A DNA stretch of 64,000 nucleotides from Dictyostelium fasciculatum (GCF_000203815.1 NW_004457695.1:1360054-1424053), one strand, 5' to 3'; shown: positions 42,645 through 60,890, numbered from the stretch's first letter. The notes: generated from the letters alone by a model not told the origin. Program-made: numbers and translations.

Positions 42645-45194
42645 TTCTGAAAGTAAATAAAAGTAAAAGAACAAGTAAAAATAATAATAAAATAAAATGA
42701 ACAATAGCTCAAAAATGTTTAATTTATTTTTTTGTGTGACGAACTATCATTATTTTAAAATCTCCCTCCAAAACCAAAAAAAAACCTTTCTTTTACTCTT
42801 TTTTTTTTTGACAAAGAGAGAGAAAAGAGATATCTGTAATATAAACAAATAACAAATAATAATAAATTACTTTTTATTTTTATTATTATTATGAATATTG
42901 ATCAATCAATGGAATGGGTTGTACACATTCAAGGTTTAGTATTACCCGACCTGGAACCAGGAATGGGAATGAACAGTTAGTTAACTAATTGTATATTTAT
43001 CGTTGGTAGTTATCATCAAACCTTTTAAAGGTTATTATATTTAGATGGGTTTTTTAATTGGATGGATGGATACTCATTTCCTAAAATGCGATGATGACGA
43101 TGATGATACAATGCGCGTCGTTTGAGCCTTTTTATCATTATACGAAAGATTATTAATTAATTAGGGGGTCTTCTAACTAGTCAAGTCTCAAAGTCTACGG
43201 AATGATCAGATGCACCAACAGTTGCGATGTTCAGCAGACTTGCACCAACTCGAGAGACGACAATTCATTTTTCGCTTCACATAAAAACTTGGCACCATAT
43301 TTATATTGTTGTTAAAAAAACACTTCGTTTCCACTTGGCAAAGACCCCAACCGTTAAAATTGTTTAAAATTTGAATTTTTGTCTTATTTTTTCTTTGAAA
43401 GACATTTCACAAGGACCGACTGCACATACTAATAATTATTGAACAACAACCAATCTCTCTATCTAAAAAGTAAAAATATTAAAAAGATATAAAACTATCT
43501 ACCACCAACCCATCATCCATCATCCATCATCACAGCACAGCTCCCAGTAGACAACACACAGCAGTAGCATCCTTATCTATCCTTATCTATCCTTATCCAC
43601 ATCCAATCTAAGGTATGTATCTTATCTTTGCACTAATCCTAAAAAACAACAGTTGTCCCTTGTCATTGTCACACACCAAGCAAAAACCAAAAAAAACATC
43701 ATTCTGCAACCAACCTCACAACAACACCGTTTTCAAATAAAATGATATCATTCTTGTGTATAGAGTCATCACCTTGAACAGTCGCAAAAAGGCTATGATG
43801 TGGAAACCAAAAGAGAGAGATAATTATTATCTTAAGAAAGTGATCATTAAACGACACACTCCAATCATAGTAAACACACAACCGTAAAAGTAATGATCCA
43901 TTTCTTATCGGCTTCGTCATTGCCTTACTAAGTGCACGAGTTTACCTCCCTAGTTTATTTATGATAATCAGAAAATAGAACAACACGAATATTCTATTCT
44001 ATTCTATTCCATTTATTTTAATAATTTATAAAATTGATCAATCATCCACCATCATCAACTACTAGTTAACAAACAAACACCACACTTTAACATCATTCAT
44101 TCGATTAATCTTAATCACTATCATTCATCCAACATCTTTGATTTATAAAATCATCATCCACAAACCACAAATAATAATAATAATAATAATAATAATAGTT
44201 TTAATTAAGTTAATTTTGTTTTAATATTTGCTGCTTCTGCTTTATATTTATTTGTTTGTGAAAGACAAACCCTCATCCATAACCTTTGCTTGACTAGTCC
44301 CTCAGATTTTGTTCAGTTCAGCCGACTCTTTTTGTTTTTTTTTTTTTTTTTCCTCTTTCAACTTCCATTTTAAACTTACACAATATATAAATCTTACCTA
44401 AAAGAAAGAAGAAGAACAAGAACAAGAACTAAAAGGCCTGTCTCAAGATATAACTCTTATTCTTACAACAACGACAACAACAAAAAGTAGTTATCCTAAT
44501 AACACCTTTAATCACTCTTATCATCAACAACATCATCTTATCATTTTAGCATACTTTTGGTAGAGATTATATATATATATATATAACATACACATAAGAT
44601 AACTCACGACTCTGTACATACAAATCATACAAAATACACATATACAGACAGACAAAAGTATTATATTATTAGTATAAGTGAAATCTCTGTTTGCATCTTT
44701 AATCTCATTTCATATTTCATTTAAATCATTCCCAAACCAACAGGACAACACATTAACTCTTTTTGAAACTATAAATATTATAGTCTCTTTATTCAAACTT
44801 GTACATACAACATAACATACAATTACTTTATTTATTTATTTATTTATTTGTTTTTGTTTGTCTTTTTTAAAAAGCAGTAGCAAGTAAATTTAAAATTAAA
44901 ATTATTAATAATAATAATCATAACCAACCAACACATAAACCTTTAATAATGATAGAATGTAAATATTTTAAAATCAAATCACTTTATGTTTCACGTTTAA
45001 ATCATTTTCAATTAAAAAGGACTTCTTTTCTTTGAGTTGCTTTGGAGTCGATAATCCCAAAGAACATCAATCAATCAATCAATCAATCAAATCAGACTCC
45101 TTTTTGTTGTTTCAATACTTTTACTCTTTTGGTAAGGGTCGTGGGTTGCTGTTGTCGTCGACACCCATCAATCTATCCATTTGAAACGTGTGAT

Positions 45195-53157: not shown

Positions 53158-53778
53158 ATGAAATTCACAAATAATTTAATGATTATCATTTCAACGATGG
53201 TGATGATGATCGTTTACAATAGTGTAGATGGAGCATCATATGTTTCCATTCAAGAATTCCCAGATAATAATTGTACTGGTGAATATTTTGCACAAAACTA
53301 TGCGATTGTTGGAACTTGTTTCGAACGATCAATGTATACATGTGATGGTGTTTCATCGACTCGTAACCTCTACAAAACTGATGATTGCTCTGGTAGTCCA
53401 TGGCAATCACAATCATACAATATCGGTCAATGTACAGGCTTTCCTGAACTAGATCAAGTAGGCTATACCATCTGGGAATGTGTCGACAATTACACCATTC
53501 CCGCCAATAGTTCAAATTCAATTACTTATCTTGGATCGTGTGAAACACCATGGAATGAAAACCCAGTACTGTGGATCAATGCACTCAAGAATAACCACTG
53601 TTTTCCACAAACCGGTGTTCCTCCAGGATCGGGTATGGTTCGTTGCAAGAACAACAAAGGATTGATGGATTTCTCGTACCCACAACGTGGATGTAAAGGT
53701 CAGGCATCAACCGACTATGAACCAAACCCAAAGTATTGTGATGGTGATCTTGGTTATGATTTCGTTTGTTCTCATTAA
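53158..53778 (+). CDS. Secreted cysteine-rich protein (206 aa), single exon
   Basis: A signal peptide MKFTNNLMIIISTMVMMIVYNSVDG, then 16 or more Cys. No family was recognised. Confidence 0.55.
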   Translation: MKFTNNLMIIISTMVMMIVYNSVDGASYVSIQEFPDNNCTGEYFAQNYAIVGTCFERSMYTCDGVSSTRNLYKTDDCSGSPWQSQSYNIGQCTGFPELDQVGYTIWECVDNYTIPANSSNSITYLGSCETPWNENPVLWINALKNNHCFPQTGVPPGSGMVRCKNNKGLMDFSYPQRGCKGQASTDYEPNPKYCDGDLGYDFVCSH

Positions 53779-53889
53779 ATAGTAAATAAATAAATAAATA
53801 AATAATCATTTTTTTTTTGTTCTTTTCTTTTATCAACCAATCAAAATAATAATTTTCTATTTTTGGGTAGACGATTTTTTTTCATGGTA

Positions 53890-54628
53890 GGAAGACAAAG
53901 GTGTTTGATAGGATGAGGATTTGATGGAATTTGATGGCGAATGAATAGAAATGCAGCCACGTTTACTAAACTATGCTCTATCTTGTCGAGGGCCCTACGA
54001 TATAGATAGTAATTGGATAGTTAAGTTATAATCAAGATCTTATATAAACTATGGTTAGTCTTATAGATTGTATAGTGTTATATAAAATGTAATAATAATG
54101 AATGATGAGAGCTGTTGCTCGTTTGTAGGTGCGTGAGAATTGGGATTTTGTAAAAATGGTCCATTCTCATTACACACGGATGAGTACTACACTAAGATGA
54201 AAAAATCCTTGGCACAAAACAACAAAAAGGTTGAGGCCCCATCGAGGTTCGAACTCGAGACCCCTTCCTTACTAGGGAAGTACAATAACCACTATGCTAT
54301 GGGGCCTTGCTTTTTTGATGCAAAATTCTCCATTCCCCCTATTTATACCCCCCTTTTACAAAGACCCTATCTATTTTTAGAACAAGCAACAATCCAAAAC
54401 AATCCAACATGCTTGACACTATACAAAAAGATACATGATCAACGTCCATACAACATGTATCATAGACATGGACAAACCCCCAGAACAAATTAACTTTAAT
54501 TCTTCTTGAGATAATCTTTATTTCTTGCTGGTCAATTAAAAAGTATAATTAATAAAACTTTGTGACTTCTGAGTACTACTCTTCCCGATAGGAGAGAACA
54601 GGAAAAGAATTACTTTAAAAAAAAAAAA
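53890..54628. repeat. Left arm of the inverted repeat pair; carries tRNA-Thr and ends in an A-run
   Basis: It is the reverse complement of 57627-58790 with indels. It ends in AAAGAATTACTTTAAAAAAAAAAAA at about 54605-54628. Confidence 0.8.
54234..54306 (-). tRNA. tRNA-Thr (anticodon AGU)
   Basis: GGCCCCATAGCATAGTGGTTATTGTACTTCCCTAGTAAGGAAGGGGTCTCGAGTTCGAACCTCGATGGGGCCT read on the minus strand. The anticodon loop is CTAGTAA, the T-arm is TCGAG/CTCGA and the acceptor is GGCCCCA/TGGGGCC. Confidence 0.85.
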
Positions 54629-57149
54629 CCTTTTACAAAGACAAATGCAAGGCACCCAGAAGCATCTGAGCTAATTAGGACTAGTCTCGCATCATTATCA
54701 TCAAACTATTATAAATAAAGACTAGGATAGACTGGGGACTATCCAACCTTGTAACCTACTCGTCAGTTAGACTGACGACGTGGATAGAGCACTCGAAGAG
54801 TCTCTTAAAGGTTGTTCATTCATTATACTCTTCTCCCCACATATCTCTGTAATAACTATATAGATACTTGGTAAATATATAATTAGTTGAGAGGTATATA
54901 ATAATAATATATAGATATATGAATATATAGATAGTAATAATGACTTTAGATTAGATTGTAAATGATTATTAATTATAGTAATAAAAGATGAATTAATGTT
55001 TATTGATTTCATTGGTCTTTTATAGTTTGTTGTTCGAGACGACTAACCGACAATAGTTTAGTCGTTAGTATTTTTATCCAGCATACTTTCTATATTTGGC
55101 ACCAGGATTAAGTATGTTGATAATTAGATGAAATATCATTGACTAATCATTGAACTGTACTTTAATTTACAATCTGAATCCAACAATCTCTACCAACTGT
55201 TTATTACAAAGCTTGCTGTTAATATAGCCTTGCTTGATGATACTTCAAATTGCTTCCATTTAAATATACATCGCGCTCCCTAACGAAATAAATAAATAAT
55301 AATTATTACCTATTCATCTTCTTATTCTTCCAATAATACATAAACATACATCTGATTTTGAAATCTTTGTTTCTCAATTCTGTAATGCCATTTTCCAATA
55401 TTGAATTCGTTGCTCGCCTTCACTCGAATTGCTTGTTGGTCTTGGTTTGTTGTTTGGAAGTGGATGTTTCCTCTGTCTTTTCATCGTCGCCACTATCTGT
55501 ACAACCACAGTCTAATCAAGTAGAGATGTTTGTTGACAACCTCTATACCTTTTCGTGTCATAAAAGTCGATCGTTTATGAGAGTGATAAGCTGTCCAATC
55601 ACAGTCTCTGGTTTACCATTGACATCACCTGTTACCTTTGTTGCATTAATACTATTAAACATTCGTAACAGCTTGTACACCAACGAGACCATTCATCAAC
55701 TCATTCATCTGCCCTCATGCAGTGATCTTTTCTCTAGAGGATCACATGTAACATCGTCTCGAAACCAAATGATCTATATGTAGGTAGTAGATAAAGAATA
55801 TGTATTGTGTATTGTACAGATATAGTTGGATCGAGAGGTGGATGTGGAGTAGGACAACATTAAATATAGAGTAGGCAATCATTTGTTTTAATTAATACTT
55901 AATAATTGATTAAAATGAATTTAAAAAAAGAATATCATCACCATAGCGATCTCTACCTTTGAATTTTTTTAAAAATGGACATTCCTCAGTTTGCCTTCCT
56001 CTCTACGATGGTGTGGTCAACATGTTCCAATCATATTCAGATTCAAGCAACTCTGAAGCAACCAGCTCTGCTCCAGAAGAGTATTGACTGGGATTAGGGA
56101 TTGCGCTTCCATCGCCACTGAAGAGGAAAGAACCAAACTCTTTGTATCTTTCTTCAAGGTCAAAGTCTCCCCATCGTTCTTTAGAATCATTGGAAAAAGA
56201 GATGTGGTTGGAGGACCAAGATCTATAGCCATGTCTCACTATTTGGTTCTATCATTGCATTCAAGATGTTGGTTGAGCGCCTCCCAAATGCCTTTTCACC
56301 GCAATCAAGTGAATCTCTTTGATACACGTGATAAAAGAAAGGACTCTTCTCCTTCTTTGTCCACCCAACAACAAAAGAAAAGCAAGGTTGATGCCCGAGA
56401 AACCAAGGAACAACAAGTCCCATCAGAGAAACCAAAGCCTTTTGCACTCTGGAGCACACCAATGCCAATATCGGCCGAATATGACTATGATCATAAAGTC
56501 GCTATCAAAAGAAAAGATGGAGAGGAATTCAATCAACCGTTGGTCTTTCAAAGTGGGGCTGATGCTATGAAGTGGTGTATAGATCCTCTGCTTTAAACCT
56601 ATTACACCTCGGCTAAAACCCAAGAGAAACAAATCAAATATGTACCTGTGGTGTCGTATACTTTTGTTGATGAAGAAAATCAATTCGAATTTCCCACTCT
56701 TCACAATGGTGAATACCAAGGTCCATTTGATATTGTATGAGATCCTATTTTTGGTAATAGGTTATATTATATGGGATATAAACAAATTAAATTCATCGTC
56801 AATACTTATACCCATATTGTTAAAGTAGAGTTACAATTTGAATCGAATTTGTTTGCTGGACAAGGTGATCAAACAATATTAAGTATTTTGAATAAATAAA
56901 TAAATAAACTTTATGAATATTATTAATATCAAAAGTGTATCTTTATCTTGTTATTTATTAAATTTAAATACAAACACTTATGATAAAAAAGCAGACGAAT
57001 TTTATCTTTTTTTTTTTTTTTATAAATCTGGACTCTAGTCGTCGGACAATAGAGTAATTATGGTTTATTTGTTTTAATTTTAATTAAAATAGTTAGAGTT
57101 TCTGTTAGTATAGGGGCTTGTAGCCCCGTTGTTGGGTGGTATTGTTTCT

Positions 57150-57300
57150 TATATTATTATTATTATATTATTATTATTATATTATTATTATTATATTATT
57201 ATTATATTATTATTATATTATTCTTATATTATTATTATATTATTATTATATTTTTAATTGTTATATTATTATTGCATTATTACTAGATTATTGTTGATGT
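57150..57300. repeat. (TATTAT/TATATTATTAT)n microsatellite
   Basis: Direct reading of the sequence. Confidence 0.8.
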
Positions 57301-58415
57301 ATCGCTTGTTGGCTAATAGTTGGTGGTGATAATTGGGAGAGGGAGGGGTGTGGCGAGTTTCCCCCATGTTCTTGCGAACCTGGCGAAGGATTGTCTGGCA
57401 TGTGTTTGGGTCTTGATTATTTCGTCAGTAGGGCTGTTGGCGATGGCTGTTGTGGTTTGGTTAACCAGTTTGGCGTGTTCGACGTAGATTATACCTTTGA
57501 ATCTTGCAATGACCATCTTATCTTCGTTTTCATCAGGTGATATTGTCGAGTGATAGATGGTGTTGAGGTGGTGGTGCCATTCCTTTAGAAGCATGATAGA
57601 TACTAGGGTTGAGTATCTGGTTTTTTTTTTTTAAAGTAATTCTTTTCCTGTTCTCTCCTATCGGGAAGAGTAGTACTCAGAAGTCACAAAGTTTTATTAA
57701 TTATACTTTTTAATTGACCAACAAGAAATAAAGATTATCTCAAGAAGAATTAAAGTTAATTTGTTCTGGGGGTTTGTCCATGTCTATGATACATGTTGTA
57801 TGGACGTTGATCATGTATCTTTTCGTATAGTGTCAAGCATGTTGGATTGTTTTGGATTGTTGCTTGTTCTAAAAATAAATTGGTTAAAGATATCGCTTTT
57901 TTTTTTTTTTTTTTTTTCTCAGCACTCTAAGCTGTAATAGTGGGAAAAATAAGTATTCTAAGTAATCATTATTATTAATAAAATTAAAATATTATTATTA
58001 TTAATATTATTATTGATAGATGAAGAGAGAATAGAAGAAGATGAAGGTGTTGACGCAAATATGGCACCCATCTTCTTCTAATTTTAGTACCATACTTGCG
58101 GTGAAACCTTAAGCCTTGGGTGCGTCCAAGACCGACTGCCGCTCTCAACTCTCGCGCCGATTTACTCCCCATTGTGGACACTCGTCTTTACGTGTTGCAT
58201 ATTGTATTTGAGATGTCAGATGGCTTTCTATCGCGACGGCCCAGTAGGTCCTCCACTACCTTCCCGTTACTTGTTGCAGTCTGGCTACCCAATCTCCTGC
58301 TGAGAAGGGGAAACTAACCCGGTCATCCTTCCGTGGGGGTGTCCTGTCTCTAGATCCCTAGAGTCGGATGGTTTTTCTCCTCAATCCCCCCAATTGTGTC
58401 AAGTTAAACGTTGGC

Positions 58416-58508
58416 GCCAAAGGTAAAGTTCGAGGGCAGGATTCGAACCTATGACCTTTACGTTCCCGGGGTAGCACACTCCCGACTCACTTGCCACGCC
58501 ATGCCCCT
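58416..58508 (-). other. tRNA-like element (box-B-like GGTTCGAATCC) that does not fold into a canonical cloverleaf; tRNA pseudogene or retroelement-derived
   Basis: The minus-strand read contains ...AGGTCATAGGTTCGAATCCTGCCC...TTTGGCGCC. The acceptor pairing is imperfect. Confidence 0.25.
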
Positions 58509-58565
58509 TGAGTATCTGGTGCGATATCGTATAAAAAGGGGCAAATCAATTTTGGCAAACTCAAA

Positions 58566-58638
58566 GGCCCCATAGCATAGTGGTTATTGTACTTCCCTAG
58601 TAAGGAAGGGGTCTCGAGTTCGAACCTCGATGGGGCCT
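58566..58638 (+). tRNA. tRNA-Thr (anticodon AGU), identical to the copy at 54234-54306
   Basis: The same 73-nt sequence on the plus strand. Confidence 0.85.
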
Positions 58639-59520
58639 CAACCTTTTTGTCGTTTTGTGCCAAGGATTTTTTTTTTTGCCGCTGTCATCTATGTGTAGTA
58701 CTCGTTGGTGGCTAGCATTTCTATCCATTCGCCATCAAAATCCATCCAATCCTCATCCTATCAAACACCTTTGTCTTCCTGCTCTGAAAAAAAAAAAAAA
58801 TAGGTTCCCATTTTGCCAAGTGTAAGACAAGAAAGTTGGCAATTGTGTTTATCCCAAACCTAACATGTCGTTGCATGAAAAATAATTAGGATATGAACCA
58901 CATTTTCATATTTTTCTGCTTATGGAGTTCTTTTTTTTTGGTAAAATACACTCTAATATTTTTATAGACAAAAAGACCACCAATTACCAAATATTCTTAA
59001 CTACGTATGGGTCATATCTAAATCCAAACCTAACAAGAATGAAAATTTCTCTTGTTTTATGTATAAAATCTAAATGGGGTTAACTCTTGCAATCACAAGA
59101 AATGGTCCAAAAGAGGTTGTCTCTATCCCAACATTAAGAATAGTATTGAAACTCGTGACGATATTATTTCTCGTACGTAGAAAGCAAGCGGTCGGTAATG
59201 TTCTTACCACATTGGTTGCCAATGAAAGTGGGTGAAATAGAAATTCATTTTTAATAAGATTACACAAAAAGAGGGGTTTAATGACATACAACGTAGAACA
59301 GTTCTATAAGTGTCCGTTAAATATGGTAAAATTTGATAAATCAAAGTATTATTTTTTCCATTCAGAGTGTCTTCAAATAAAAAAAAGAAACCCAAATGAC
59401 CAAAAATTACCAAGCTTCTGGCGGCTCAATTTTCGCCCAAAAAAATTTCAGTCAAATTGGCAATTTGTAAAAGACGATTGTAGGGAGAAGTAGGCTTTTT
59501 CGAAATAGGGGTCATCGGTG

Positions 59521-59563
59521 GATTCTATGGTCGAGCGGTCTAAGACGTCAGTTTAAGGAACTG
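59521..59563 (+). pseudogene. Truncated tRNA-Leu(AAG) 5' half (acceptor, D-arm and anticodon arm only), with the same upstream flank as the full copy
   Basis: GATTCTATGGTCGAGCGGTCTAAGACGTCAGTTTAAGGAACTG then diverges. About 25 bp of upstream flank is also duplicated. Confidence 0.6.
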
Positions 59564-59708
59564 TTCATTTGGACCAATATATTAGTTTAGAGACTTATGT
59601 TTGTCATTATCTATGCTATTTTTAAAGTCAATATAAACACATTTCTAACAGAATAGAGGCAAAAAAAACCAAAATAAGTAGGCTTTTTCGGAATAGTTGT
59701 CAGCAGCG

Positions 59709-59788
59709 GATTCTTTGGTCGAGCGGTCTAAGACGTCAGTTTAAGGCACTGATCCTCCGGGGCGTGGGTTCAAATCCCACAGGAATCA
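59709..59788 (+). tRNA. tRNA-Leu (anticodon AAG), class II with an 11-nt variable arm
   Basis: The acceptor is GATTCTT/AGGAATC plus a discriminator A. The D-arm is GTC..GAC, the anticodon loop is TTAAGGC, and the T-arm is GTGGGTTCAAATCCCAC. Confidence 0.8.
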
Positions 59789-59827
59789 TCTAATCCTTTT
59801 TATCCTCCATTTTTTTTTTTTTTTTTT

Positions 59828-60520
59828 CCATTTTTTCCATTCCTCCTCCATTCCTCTCCATTCCTCTCCATTCCTCTCCATTCCTCTCCATTCCTCTCCA
59901 TTCCTCTCCATTCCTCTCCATTCCTCCTCCAATCCTCCTCCATTCCTCTCCATTCCTCCTCCATTCCTCTCCATTCCTCTCCATTCCTCTCCATTCCTCC
60001 TCCATTCCTCTCCATTCCTCTCCATTCCTCTCCATTCCTCTCCATTCCCTCCATTCCTCCTCCATTCCTCTCCTCCATTCCTCTCATTCTCCTCCAATCC
60101 ATTCCTCTCCATTCCCCTCCATTCCTCTCCATTCCTCCATTCCCTCCTCCATTCCTCTCCATTCCCCTCCATTCATTCCTCTCCATTCCTCCAATTCCTC
60201 CTCCATTCATTCCTCTCCATTCCCTCCATTCCTCTCCATTCCTCTCCATTCTCTCCATTCTCTCCATTCCTCCTCCATTCATTCTCTCCATTCCCCCCCA
60301 TTCATTCCCTCCCATTCCTCTCCAATTCCATTCTTTCCCTCTTTCCCCTCTTTCCCCTCTTTCCCCTTTCCCTCCTCTCCTTTCCCTCCTTTCCTTTCCC
60401 CTCTCCATCCTCCATTCCTCCTCCTCCATTCCTCCTCCATTCCTCCATTCCTCCTCCATTCCTCCTCCATTCCTCCATTCCTCCTCCCCTCCTCCTCCCT
60501 TCCTTTCCTTTTTTTCTCCA
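59828..60520. repeat. About 700 bp tandem satellite of a degenerate 10-mer (CCATTCCTCT)n
   Basis: Direct reading. The table ORFs 59786-60631 on the minus strand (MERNGEEWRG...) are translations of this repeat. Confidence 0.85.
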
Positions 60521-60890
60521 TAGCGCTGGTTGTTGAACCTCACTACGATGCTCTGAAAGGTACTTTACCACTTTCATGTGACCATTTGGAGATGCCCAAT
60601 CCATAGCATTAAGAACTGTAAATATGATCAAATTTTGTTATTTAATGAATACTTTTACTCCATTCAATGCATTGTTACAAATACATACTTTAACAACCTC
60701 TAAATGGCCAAATCTAGCTGCACCTTGAGTTATATTAAAATGAAGAAAACTATTATTTTTGACACAGATATTAATATATTTAAATATAGATTAAACCAAC
60801 CAACTAATCAACTCACCCTTTACAACTTTTAAATGGTTACCAATAGCTGCTCTATCCTATAAATTATAAAGATATATTAATAAATTATTT
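60521..60890 (-). pseudogene. Ankyrin-repeat gene fragment (three short exon-like pieces), likely decayed
   Basis: DRAAIGNHLKVVKG, AARFGHLEVVK and NAMDWASPNGHMKVVKYLSEHRSEV are ANK consensus pieces separated by GT..AG introns. The 5' end does not close in frame, and the 3' end runs into the satellite. Confidence 0.3.

Follow-up and report, generated by a model that had tools for sequence, protein, structure and literature searches.

The TRE5 elements of Dictyostelium fasciculatum and D. discoideum are L1-clade retrotransposons without long terminal repeats (non-LTR type) that are targeted to tRNA genes (PMC5006619, PMC5911963, PMC3159450). In D. discoideum they lie about 44-54 bp upstream of the tRNA, in the opposite orientation and with their 5' end facing the tRNA (PMC5911963, PMC3159450). 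The corresponding upstream ranges of Df_TRE5-A.1, Df_TRE5-A.2, Df_TRE5-A.3 and Df_TRE5-B are 45-88, 31-98, 39-67 and 44-90 bp, respectively (PMC5006619 Table 1). The published position of TRE3 elements relative to the tRNA gene is 29-404 bp downstream (PMC5006619). Apart from these elements, identical tRNA genes are known to occur close together in Dictyostelium, as pairs or triplets (PMC8163159, which cites the D. discoideum genome paper). Here we compare with these systems a locus of Cavenderia (Dictyostelium) fasciculata that carries two identical tRNA-Thr(AGU) genes, contained in a stretch of 64,000 nucleotides (nt) that we refer to as the window. An open reading frame (ORF) translated from the core between the two genes is 100% identical to the hypothetical protein DFA_08168 (3.47-Mb contig).

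An earlier note on this DNA, which rightly took the organism for a dictyostelid, had described a 4.9-kb unit bounded by inverted repeats, possibly a composite or fold-back element. The explanation that we favor, and consider likely, is that the locus is an old inverted pair of tRNA-Thr genes, each of which was independently hit by TRE5-type, tRNA-directed retroposition of a poly(A)-ended element. Its anatomy, duplications, distances and orientation, and the dispersal of two of its repeats (C and F, described below), are direct observations. The locus is a new instance of the known dictyostelid system of tRNA-targeting retroelements and leaves the known picture of that system unchanged. What it adds is modest: a double insertion that appears to be chimeric, and a non-coding element that bears a B box.

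The inverted tRNA-Thr pair and retroposon C

The two tRNA-Thr(AGU) genes were detected by both ARAGORN and Rfam, one on the minus strand at 54233-54306 (Rfam tRNA score 60.7 bits) and the other on the plus strand at 58566-58639, and a consensus scan places their B boxes at 54246-54261 and 58611-58626, respectively. The genes (73/74 nt) are identical and stand head to head, ~4.2 kb apart. On this point the earlier note agrees with ARAGORN, Rfam and our alignment. The Rfam search of 52-62 kb found three tRNA genes, namely these two and a tRNA-Leu, and no further family.

The inverted similarity around the two genes consists of three reverse-complement blocks, which were recovered with a repeat finder and by self-BLASTN and are far beyond chance. 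Block C (54366-54630 versus 57619-57883) spans 265 nt at 98.5% identity. Block B (54200-54308 versus 58564-58672; 109 nt, 99%) comprises the tRNA and 33 nt of its 3' flank, and block A (53875-53960 versus 58708-58794) covers 87 nt at 92%. Runs of A or T close all four arm ends (T8 at 53875-53882, A12 at 54617-54628, T12 at 57621-57632 and A14 at 58787-58800), and the view of these runs as marks of retroposition holds. The arms had been described as reverse complements of each other, which is correct for the three blocks but not for the arms as a whole, because they are not collinear and measure 756 nt on the left and 1176 nt on the right. In a gapped alignment in tRNA orientation, the upstream block is 680 nt from the tRNA in the right arm versus 57 nt in the left arm, and ~205 nt located 3' of the left tRNA (53961-54170) have no counterpart on the right. 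The inverted repeat is therefore real yet mosaic, with its three blocks parted by arm-specific DNA.

Block C corresponds to a short retroposon, here named C. The left copy (54366-54628, plus strand) is 263 nt long, with a 251-nt body followed by A12, and its 5' end faces the tRNA. The right copy (57621-57883) is on the minus strand, so that its tail appears as T12 on the plus strand, and the two copies are 98.5% identical. The window has 40 poly(A) runs of 10 nt or more, and each was scanned for a target-site duplication, taken as a complex direct repeat, 12 nt or longer, which directly follows the run and recurs at most 1.5 kb upstream. Only two of the 40 runs, both at copies of C, carry such a repeat. 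At the left C, the 14-nt sequence CCTTTTACAAAGAC occurs at 54352-54365, 45 nt from the tRNA 5' end, and again at 54629-54642, directly after A12. On the right, the 12-nt sequence TTGAGTATCTGG occurs at 58508-58519, 46 nt from the tRNA 5' end, and at 57609-57620, where it adjoins the T12 of the right C. This right repeat flanks C together with a 13-nt linker and a sequence that we call E, and its distal copy coincides with the first bases of another repeat, F.

The perfect 14-nt and 12-nt repeats differ completely in sequence, and the left 14-mer is absent beside C in the right arm, on both sides. Because each C copy has its own, different perfect direct repeats, we read the two copies as separate insertions rather than the ends of one element. 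Nor do we see C as carried by one duplication, since the resemblance between the arms in the 45-46 nt next to the tRNA 5' ends is weak (shuffle p about 0.016) and the DNA beyond the distal copies of the duplications is unrelated between the arms (p = 0.18).

To judge from protein-level matches in gene models, from which copies of C and F outside the window are known, C is repeated at dispersed sites. When the ORFs of the window were used in an exhaustive HMMER search, it emerged that the C-encoded peptide recurs at 85-93% identity in DFA_10274, DFA_10072 and DFA_09581, which are on contigs of 1.92 and 0.94 Mb. The similarity begins at the same residue in all five copies of C, so that C has the look of one discrete element, some 250 nt long, and not of a randomly 5'-truncated long element. 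The two local copies resemble each other more closely than they do the three in other gene models. An exact metagenome scan with a 26-mer from C gave no match. All three gene models are hypothetical proteins with C-derived exons, and in DFA_10072 one such exon is joined to a monalysin-like pore-forming domain. These exons are likely artefacts of the C. fasciculata annotation.

We found no Pfam domain (reverse transcriptase, endonuclease, transposase, integrase or other) in the six frames of 54630-58565 or in single ORFs, and the copies of C, E and F are on this account at most non-autonomous or truncated, 3'-terminal derivatives, not mobile by themselves. A weak Pfam match to CI-B14_5a fell below its cut-off and was disregarded.

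In several respects the locus resembles insertions of Df_TRE5 and of TRE5-A of D. discoideum. Counted upstream from the tRNA, the duplications start at 45 nt on the left and 46 nt on the right, and the element 5' ends are found at 59 nt (left) and 58 nt (right). The orientation is opposite to that of the tRNA, and the poly(A) tails point inward to the core: A12 is distal to the minus-strand tRNA, and both T12 and a T21 run at 57897-57917 are distal to the plus-strand tRNA. There is a perfect target-site duplication of 14 nt for the left insertion and of 12 nt for the right one, within the 12-14 nt shared with TRE5. Further common features are the 3' oligo(A) and the stacking of insertions at one tRNA gene. 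Apart from these features, C has left traces in three gene models on two other contigs, and F in one. The earlier statement that dictyostelid tRNA genes serve as retroelement targets is thus borne out at both genes, as the insertions begin 45-46 nt upstream of each.

The differences concern coding content and the 5' end. Unlike Df_TRE5 and TRE5-A, the three sequences C, E and F (263, 611 and about 610 nt, respectively) have no ORF1, APE or reverse transcriptase (RT), and with no Pfam family in the six frames, derivation from ORF1 or from an APE-RT ORF2 could not be recognized. In addition, C has a discrete 5' end in five copies, in contrast to random 5' truncation. The likeness to TRE5 is one of anatomy (position, orientation, tail and duplication). 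If the insertions were targeted as in D. discoideum, where TRE5-A has been studied, they would have been guided by the TFIIIB/TFIIIC complex. An autonomous Df_TRE5 is the likely source of the ORF2 protein that mobilized C in trans, by analogy with TRE5-A.2, which C resembles as a non-coding derivative presumably moved in trans.

The right arm and the probable order of events

Sequence E occupies 57897-58507 in minus sense, between the right tRNA and the right C. Its 611 nt comprise a 5' part of about 430 nt with 52% GC (58080-58507), an AT-rich (AAT)n tail and A21 (57897-57917). Between this poly(A) and the 5' end of C lies the linker of 13 nt (57884-57896, minus strand; TTAAAGATATCGC on the plus strand). 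The linker has the length of a target-site duplication and may have been carried over from the source locus.

E contains a perfect consensus of the RNA polymerase III B box at 58440-58455. There are three matches to this consensus in the window, and the other two are the tRNA-Thr genes. In this respect E resembles tRNA-derived short interspersed nuclear elements (SINEs), with a perfect B-box consensus (GTCATAGGTTCGAATC) about 55-70 nt from the 5' end. This consensus is preceded by an A-box-like motif, and E also has a body and an AT-rich tail with poly(A). It differs from them in its tRNA-like structure. The Rfam tRNA model fails even at E = 10 in a 126-nt search, and ARAGORN draws a cloverleaf, a poor one, only at a relaxed threshold (-ps80). 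The folds of E and of the E head are no better than those of shuffled sequences, and the same is true of the three element tails (z from +1.5 to -1.95 for E, the E head and the tails), so that we claim neither a 3' recognition hairpin nor a structured RNA. Neither E nor the E head matches an Rfam family, and E has no ORF with coding-like codon usage. Self-comparison revealed no second copy of E in the window, and an exact metagenome scan with a 29-mer from the E head gave no match.

On the other side of the right C, F extends over 57007-57620, also in minus sense. Its 5' part, with 46% GC and a 93-amino-acid (aa) ORF (57313-57594), is followed by a microsatellite, (ATTATTATTATAT)n, at 57149-57292 and then by an AT-rich tail with A15 (57007-57021). 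Since 40 aa of this ORF recur at 82% in DFA_08713, F is repeated, and it is probably an older retroposon layer of the same kind.

The whole of E-A21-GCGATATCTTTAA-C-A12 stands inside one 12-nt repeat, and no separate repeat surrounds the right C. For this reason, the simplest reading is that E, the linker and C entered as one insertion of a chimeric RNA, which would have arisen by read-through or template switch. Transduction and template-switch chimeras are known from mammalian L1 and SVA elements. The right arm is similar to these in that two poly(A)-ended units stand head to tail (E-A21-13 nt-C-A12) inside one 12-nt duplication. It differs in its dictyostelid host and tRNA-targeted site, and read-through or template switching would be the presumed mechanism here.

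The events at the locus may be reconstructed as follows. An inverted duplication would have copied the tRNA-Thr gene along with some 40 nt on its upstream side and about 150 nt on its downstream side. Later, the non-coding, dispersed C would have inserted at each gene by target-primed reverse transcription, with its own duplication each time, at sites that begin 45-46 nt upstream of the mature tRNA 5' end, and with the element's 5' end facing the tRNA. On the right, C would have come as the 3' part of the chimera E-A21-13 nt-C-A12, most likely from a read-through or template-switched RNA. This chimera would have landed in the first 12 nt of the older repeat F, which was already present upstream of the right tRNA.

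Beyond this, we suggest tentatively that C, E and F could be undescribed families of non-coding, non-autonomous retroposons that use the TRE5 machinery, with E as a degenerate, tRNA-derived SINE-like element and the right arm as a co-mobilized chimera. To our knowledge, no SINE has been described in this lineage. If the suggestion is true, the right arm would represent transduction by a tRNA-targeted retroposon, in the form of a read-through or template-switched chimera of two elements. If C, E and F are distinct from the Df_TRE5 consensus, short non-autonomous partners and possible transduction would be added to the dictyostelid system.

Several observations weigh against the proposed history. 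The scan of poly(A) runs found no target-site duplication for F, and none was found, by the scan or by eye, for the 3'-flank segments of the tRNA genes. The right 12-nt repeat overlaps the start of F, and its last 4 nt can pair in the weak tRNA-like fold of E; the repeat could be a shared element terminus and not a target-site duplication. The heptamer GATATCG is found on both sides of E and would permit a separate insertion of E. In DFA_10072, a copy of C is followed by a homologue of 54933-55022 of the core, and repeated DNA beside C is not what a strict view of the core as unique DNA predicts. Finally, a second inverted pair of C is found in DFA_09581, in the form of a sense C and the 3' end of an antisense C. 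Repeated DNA beside C may be put down to older retroposon layers or to paralogous tRNA loci.

The points about the 12-nt repeat and the heptamer would fit a right arm that had been built by three successive insertions at about -46 (F, then C, then E), with CCAGATACTCAA as the conserved 5' terminus of E and F. E and F are indeed alike in layout, as both have about 610 nt, a GC-rich 5' part, (AAT)n and an AT-rich tail before the poly(A). There is weak similarity over their last 80 nt (p = 0.01), and both start with the same 12-mer, part of which is included in the F copy of DFA_08713. However, E and F have no similarity beyond the 12-mer and the (AAT)n microsatellite. Three insertions with ordinary duplications should also have left three copies of the 12-mer, and the middle position holds GCGATATCTTTAA instead. 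Moreover, the right C would lack any duplication despite being no older than the left C, which has a perfect one. We therefore regard three insertions as an unlikely origin of the right arm and retain the insertion of a chimera into F.

The 3' flanks of the tRNA genes

The left 3' flank (53875-54232, minus strand) ends, in tRNA orientation, in A8, the T8 of the plus strand, and holds the ~205 nt that are found only on the left. The right 3' flank (58640-58800, plus strand) ends in A14. The two flanks are 94% identical over 146 aligned columns, and their homology stops exactly at the poly(A) in both, which is 351 nt downstream of the tRNA on the left (A8) and 147 nt downstream on the right (A14). 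Both arms have the same proximal junction, and no duplication was seen. We therefore read the tRNA gene, together with ~40 nt upstream and ~150 nt downstream of it, as an old inverted duplicate of an already flanked tRNA gene. Copying of the tRNA and its flank as a read-through transcript (from -37 to the poly(A)) was also considered and was dropped, because no direct repeat surrounds that unit.

Like the identical-tRNA pairs and triplets of Dictyostelium, the locus has two identical genes, here tRNA-Thr(AGU), a short distance apart (4.2 kb). It differs from them in that the C. fasciculata pair is head to head and that its common DNA extends only ~40 nt upstream and ~150 nt downstream. The 3' flanks also have the geometry of TRE3, as they fall, downstream of the tRNA gene, inside the range of 29-404 bp, in tRNA orientation and with a distal oligo(A). 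The common part of the flanks begins 34-47 nt after the tRNA, and the poly(A) is located where the homology between the arms stops. The likeness to TRE3 is one of geometry only, since here a target-site duplication and a coding remnant are both absent and other copies are not in evidence. In addition, both arms share their 5' junction, a point in favor of the duplication of a flanked tRNA gene over two insertions.

A duplication could in principle have been larger. The earlier note had named an inverted segmental duplication seeded at tRNA genes, and for the tRNA and ~150 nt of 3' flank (94%, 146 columns) we arrive at the same conclusion; for C we do not, as its junctions differ between the arms. 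In the more extensive version, the whole arm (3' flank, tRNA-Thr and an already inserted C) would have been duplicated in inversion, and later insertions and deletions (insertion of E on the right, and gain or loss of 205 nt on the left) would have made the arms unequal. This would be in line with the high identity of the three blocks (98.5%, 99% and 92%), with local C copies that are nearer each other than to the three copies elsewhere, and with the tRNA and its 3' flank, which resemble a true duplicate. Nearby identical tRNA pairs are also known in D. discoideum (PMC8163159). Duplication of a whole arm is largely refuted by the direct repeats around C, which differ completely, with the left 14-mer missing beside C in the right arm. 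Divergence is far higher in the 45-46 nt that lie between tRNA and C than in either C or the tRNA flank, and the break-points would need to match both ends of C exactly. Duplication of the whole arm thus appears very unlikely, and we favor duplication of the flanked tRNA gene followed by separate insertions of C.

The core and the surrounding DNA

It is extremely unlikely that the locus is a composite or fold-back mobile element, in which the C copies or the whole arms would act as terminal inverted repeats and move the 3-kb core, because the inverted pair of C in DFA_09581 and the junction of C with a homologue of 54933-55022 in DFA_10072, which could speak for such an element, stand against the separate duplication of each C, the poly(A) tails running into the core, the absence of a transposase, integrase or reverse transcriptase in any frame of 54630-58565, the unrelated inner flanks and a core that contains an ordinary-looking decayed gene without relatives beyond its own annotation. 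There is also no direct repeat around the whole 4.9-kb unit (53860-53885 and 58795-58830 compared), and the outer flanks, GGGTAGACGA and TAGGTTCCCA, are unrelated to each other. The fold-back proposal of the earlier note is accordingly abandoned. Taken together, the two inward C copies, the two tRNA genes and the common 3' flanks give the appearance of terminal inverted repeats. Retroposition that is specific in position and orientation can thus, at neighboring head-to-head tRNA genes, be mistaken for a large inverted-repeat transposon, and this calls for caution in repeat annotation.

The core is not a cargo. It is simply the DNA between two tRNA genes, and it contains an apparently decayed gene and older retroposon debris. 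Its GC content, previously described as unlike that of the surroundings, is raised only locally; it ranges from 20% to 43%, and the mean of 33.7% compares with 32.5% in the whole window. The core had also been thought to contain no recognizable gene, whereas the annotation has two gene models in it, DFA_08168 and DFA_08169. The exons of DFA_08168 are at 55385-55780 and 56099-56593 on the plus strand, and the same frame continues through two stops to 56896, giving an orphan gene or pseudogene at 55385-56896. From 56057 to 56896, the plus-strand frame has 2 stops in 280 codons, compared with 18.6 expected and a minimum of 6 in 5000 shuffles, and its codon usage is coding-like. The frame ends at a TAAATAAATAAATAAA motif, like the one after the neighboring gene. 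No relatives of this frame were found among 1.84 billion representatives, beyond its own annotation. Judging from these features, it is apparently an orphan gene that has been decayed or truncated. With such a gene or pseudogene and the retroposon debris beside it, the core is no longer without explanation.

On the left side of the core, a repeated piece of 90 nt (54933-55022, plus strand; SNNDFRLD..IKDELMFIDFIGLL) is the one that also occurs beside the C copy in DFA_10072. Its recurrence hints at a further repeat layer or a paralogous locus. The gene model DFA_08169 (102 aa; 56771-56881, 57313-57453 and 58019-58078) combines the tail of the decayed ORF, the antisense of F and the AT-rich tail of E. 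A model put together from retroposon fragments in this way is almost certainly an artefact of the annotation.

Outside the arms, a single-exon gene at 53158-53778 encodes a 206-aa secreted, cysteine-rich protein of the dictyostelid CfaA/B/C (counting-factor-associated) family (PF11912, E = 3e-12) and ends ~100 nt from the left arm. At a distance from the locus, a T17 run at 44335-44351 has the 10-mer ACTCTTTTTG at its left (44325-44334) and again at 44756-44765. The interval 44325-44765 could be a 404-nt minus-sense poly(A) retroposon away from tRNA genes, with a repeat that is short and T-rich and may be due to chance.

The tRNA-Leu(AAG) gene is located at 59709-59788 (ARAGORN, Rfam). An 89%-identical copy of its 33-nt upstream flank and first 46 nt is found 188 nt upstream (59488-59566 versus 59676-59754) and represents a truncated tRNA half-gene. 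The 109-nt spacer between the two tRNA-Leu copies ends in GGCAAAAAAAACC, and the arrangement resembles an insertion with a very long direct repeat. Directly after the tRNA-Leu gene, about 670 nt (59836-60508) consist of a 10-nt satellite, (TCCATTCCTC)n, made up of C and T only (GC skew -1.0), and a 247-aa ORF on the minus strand (59800-60543) runs through this satellite.

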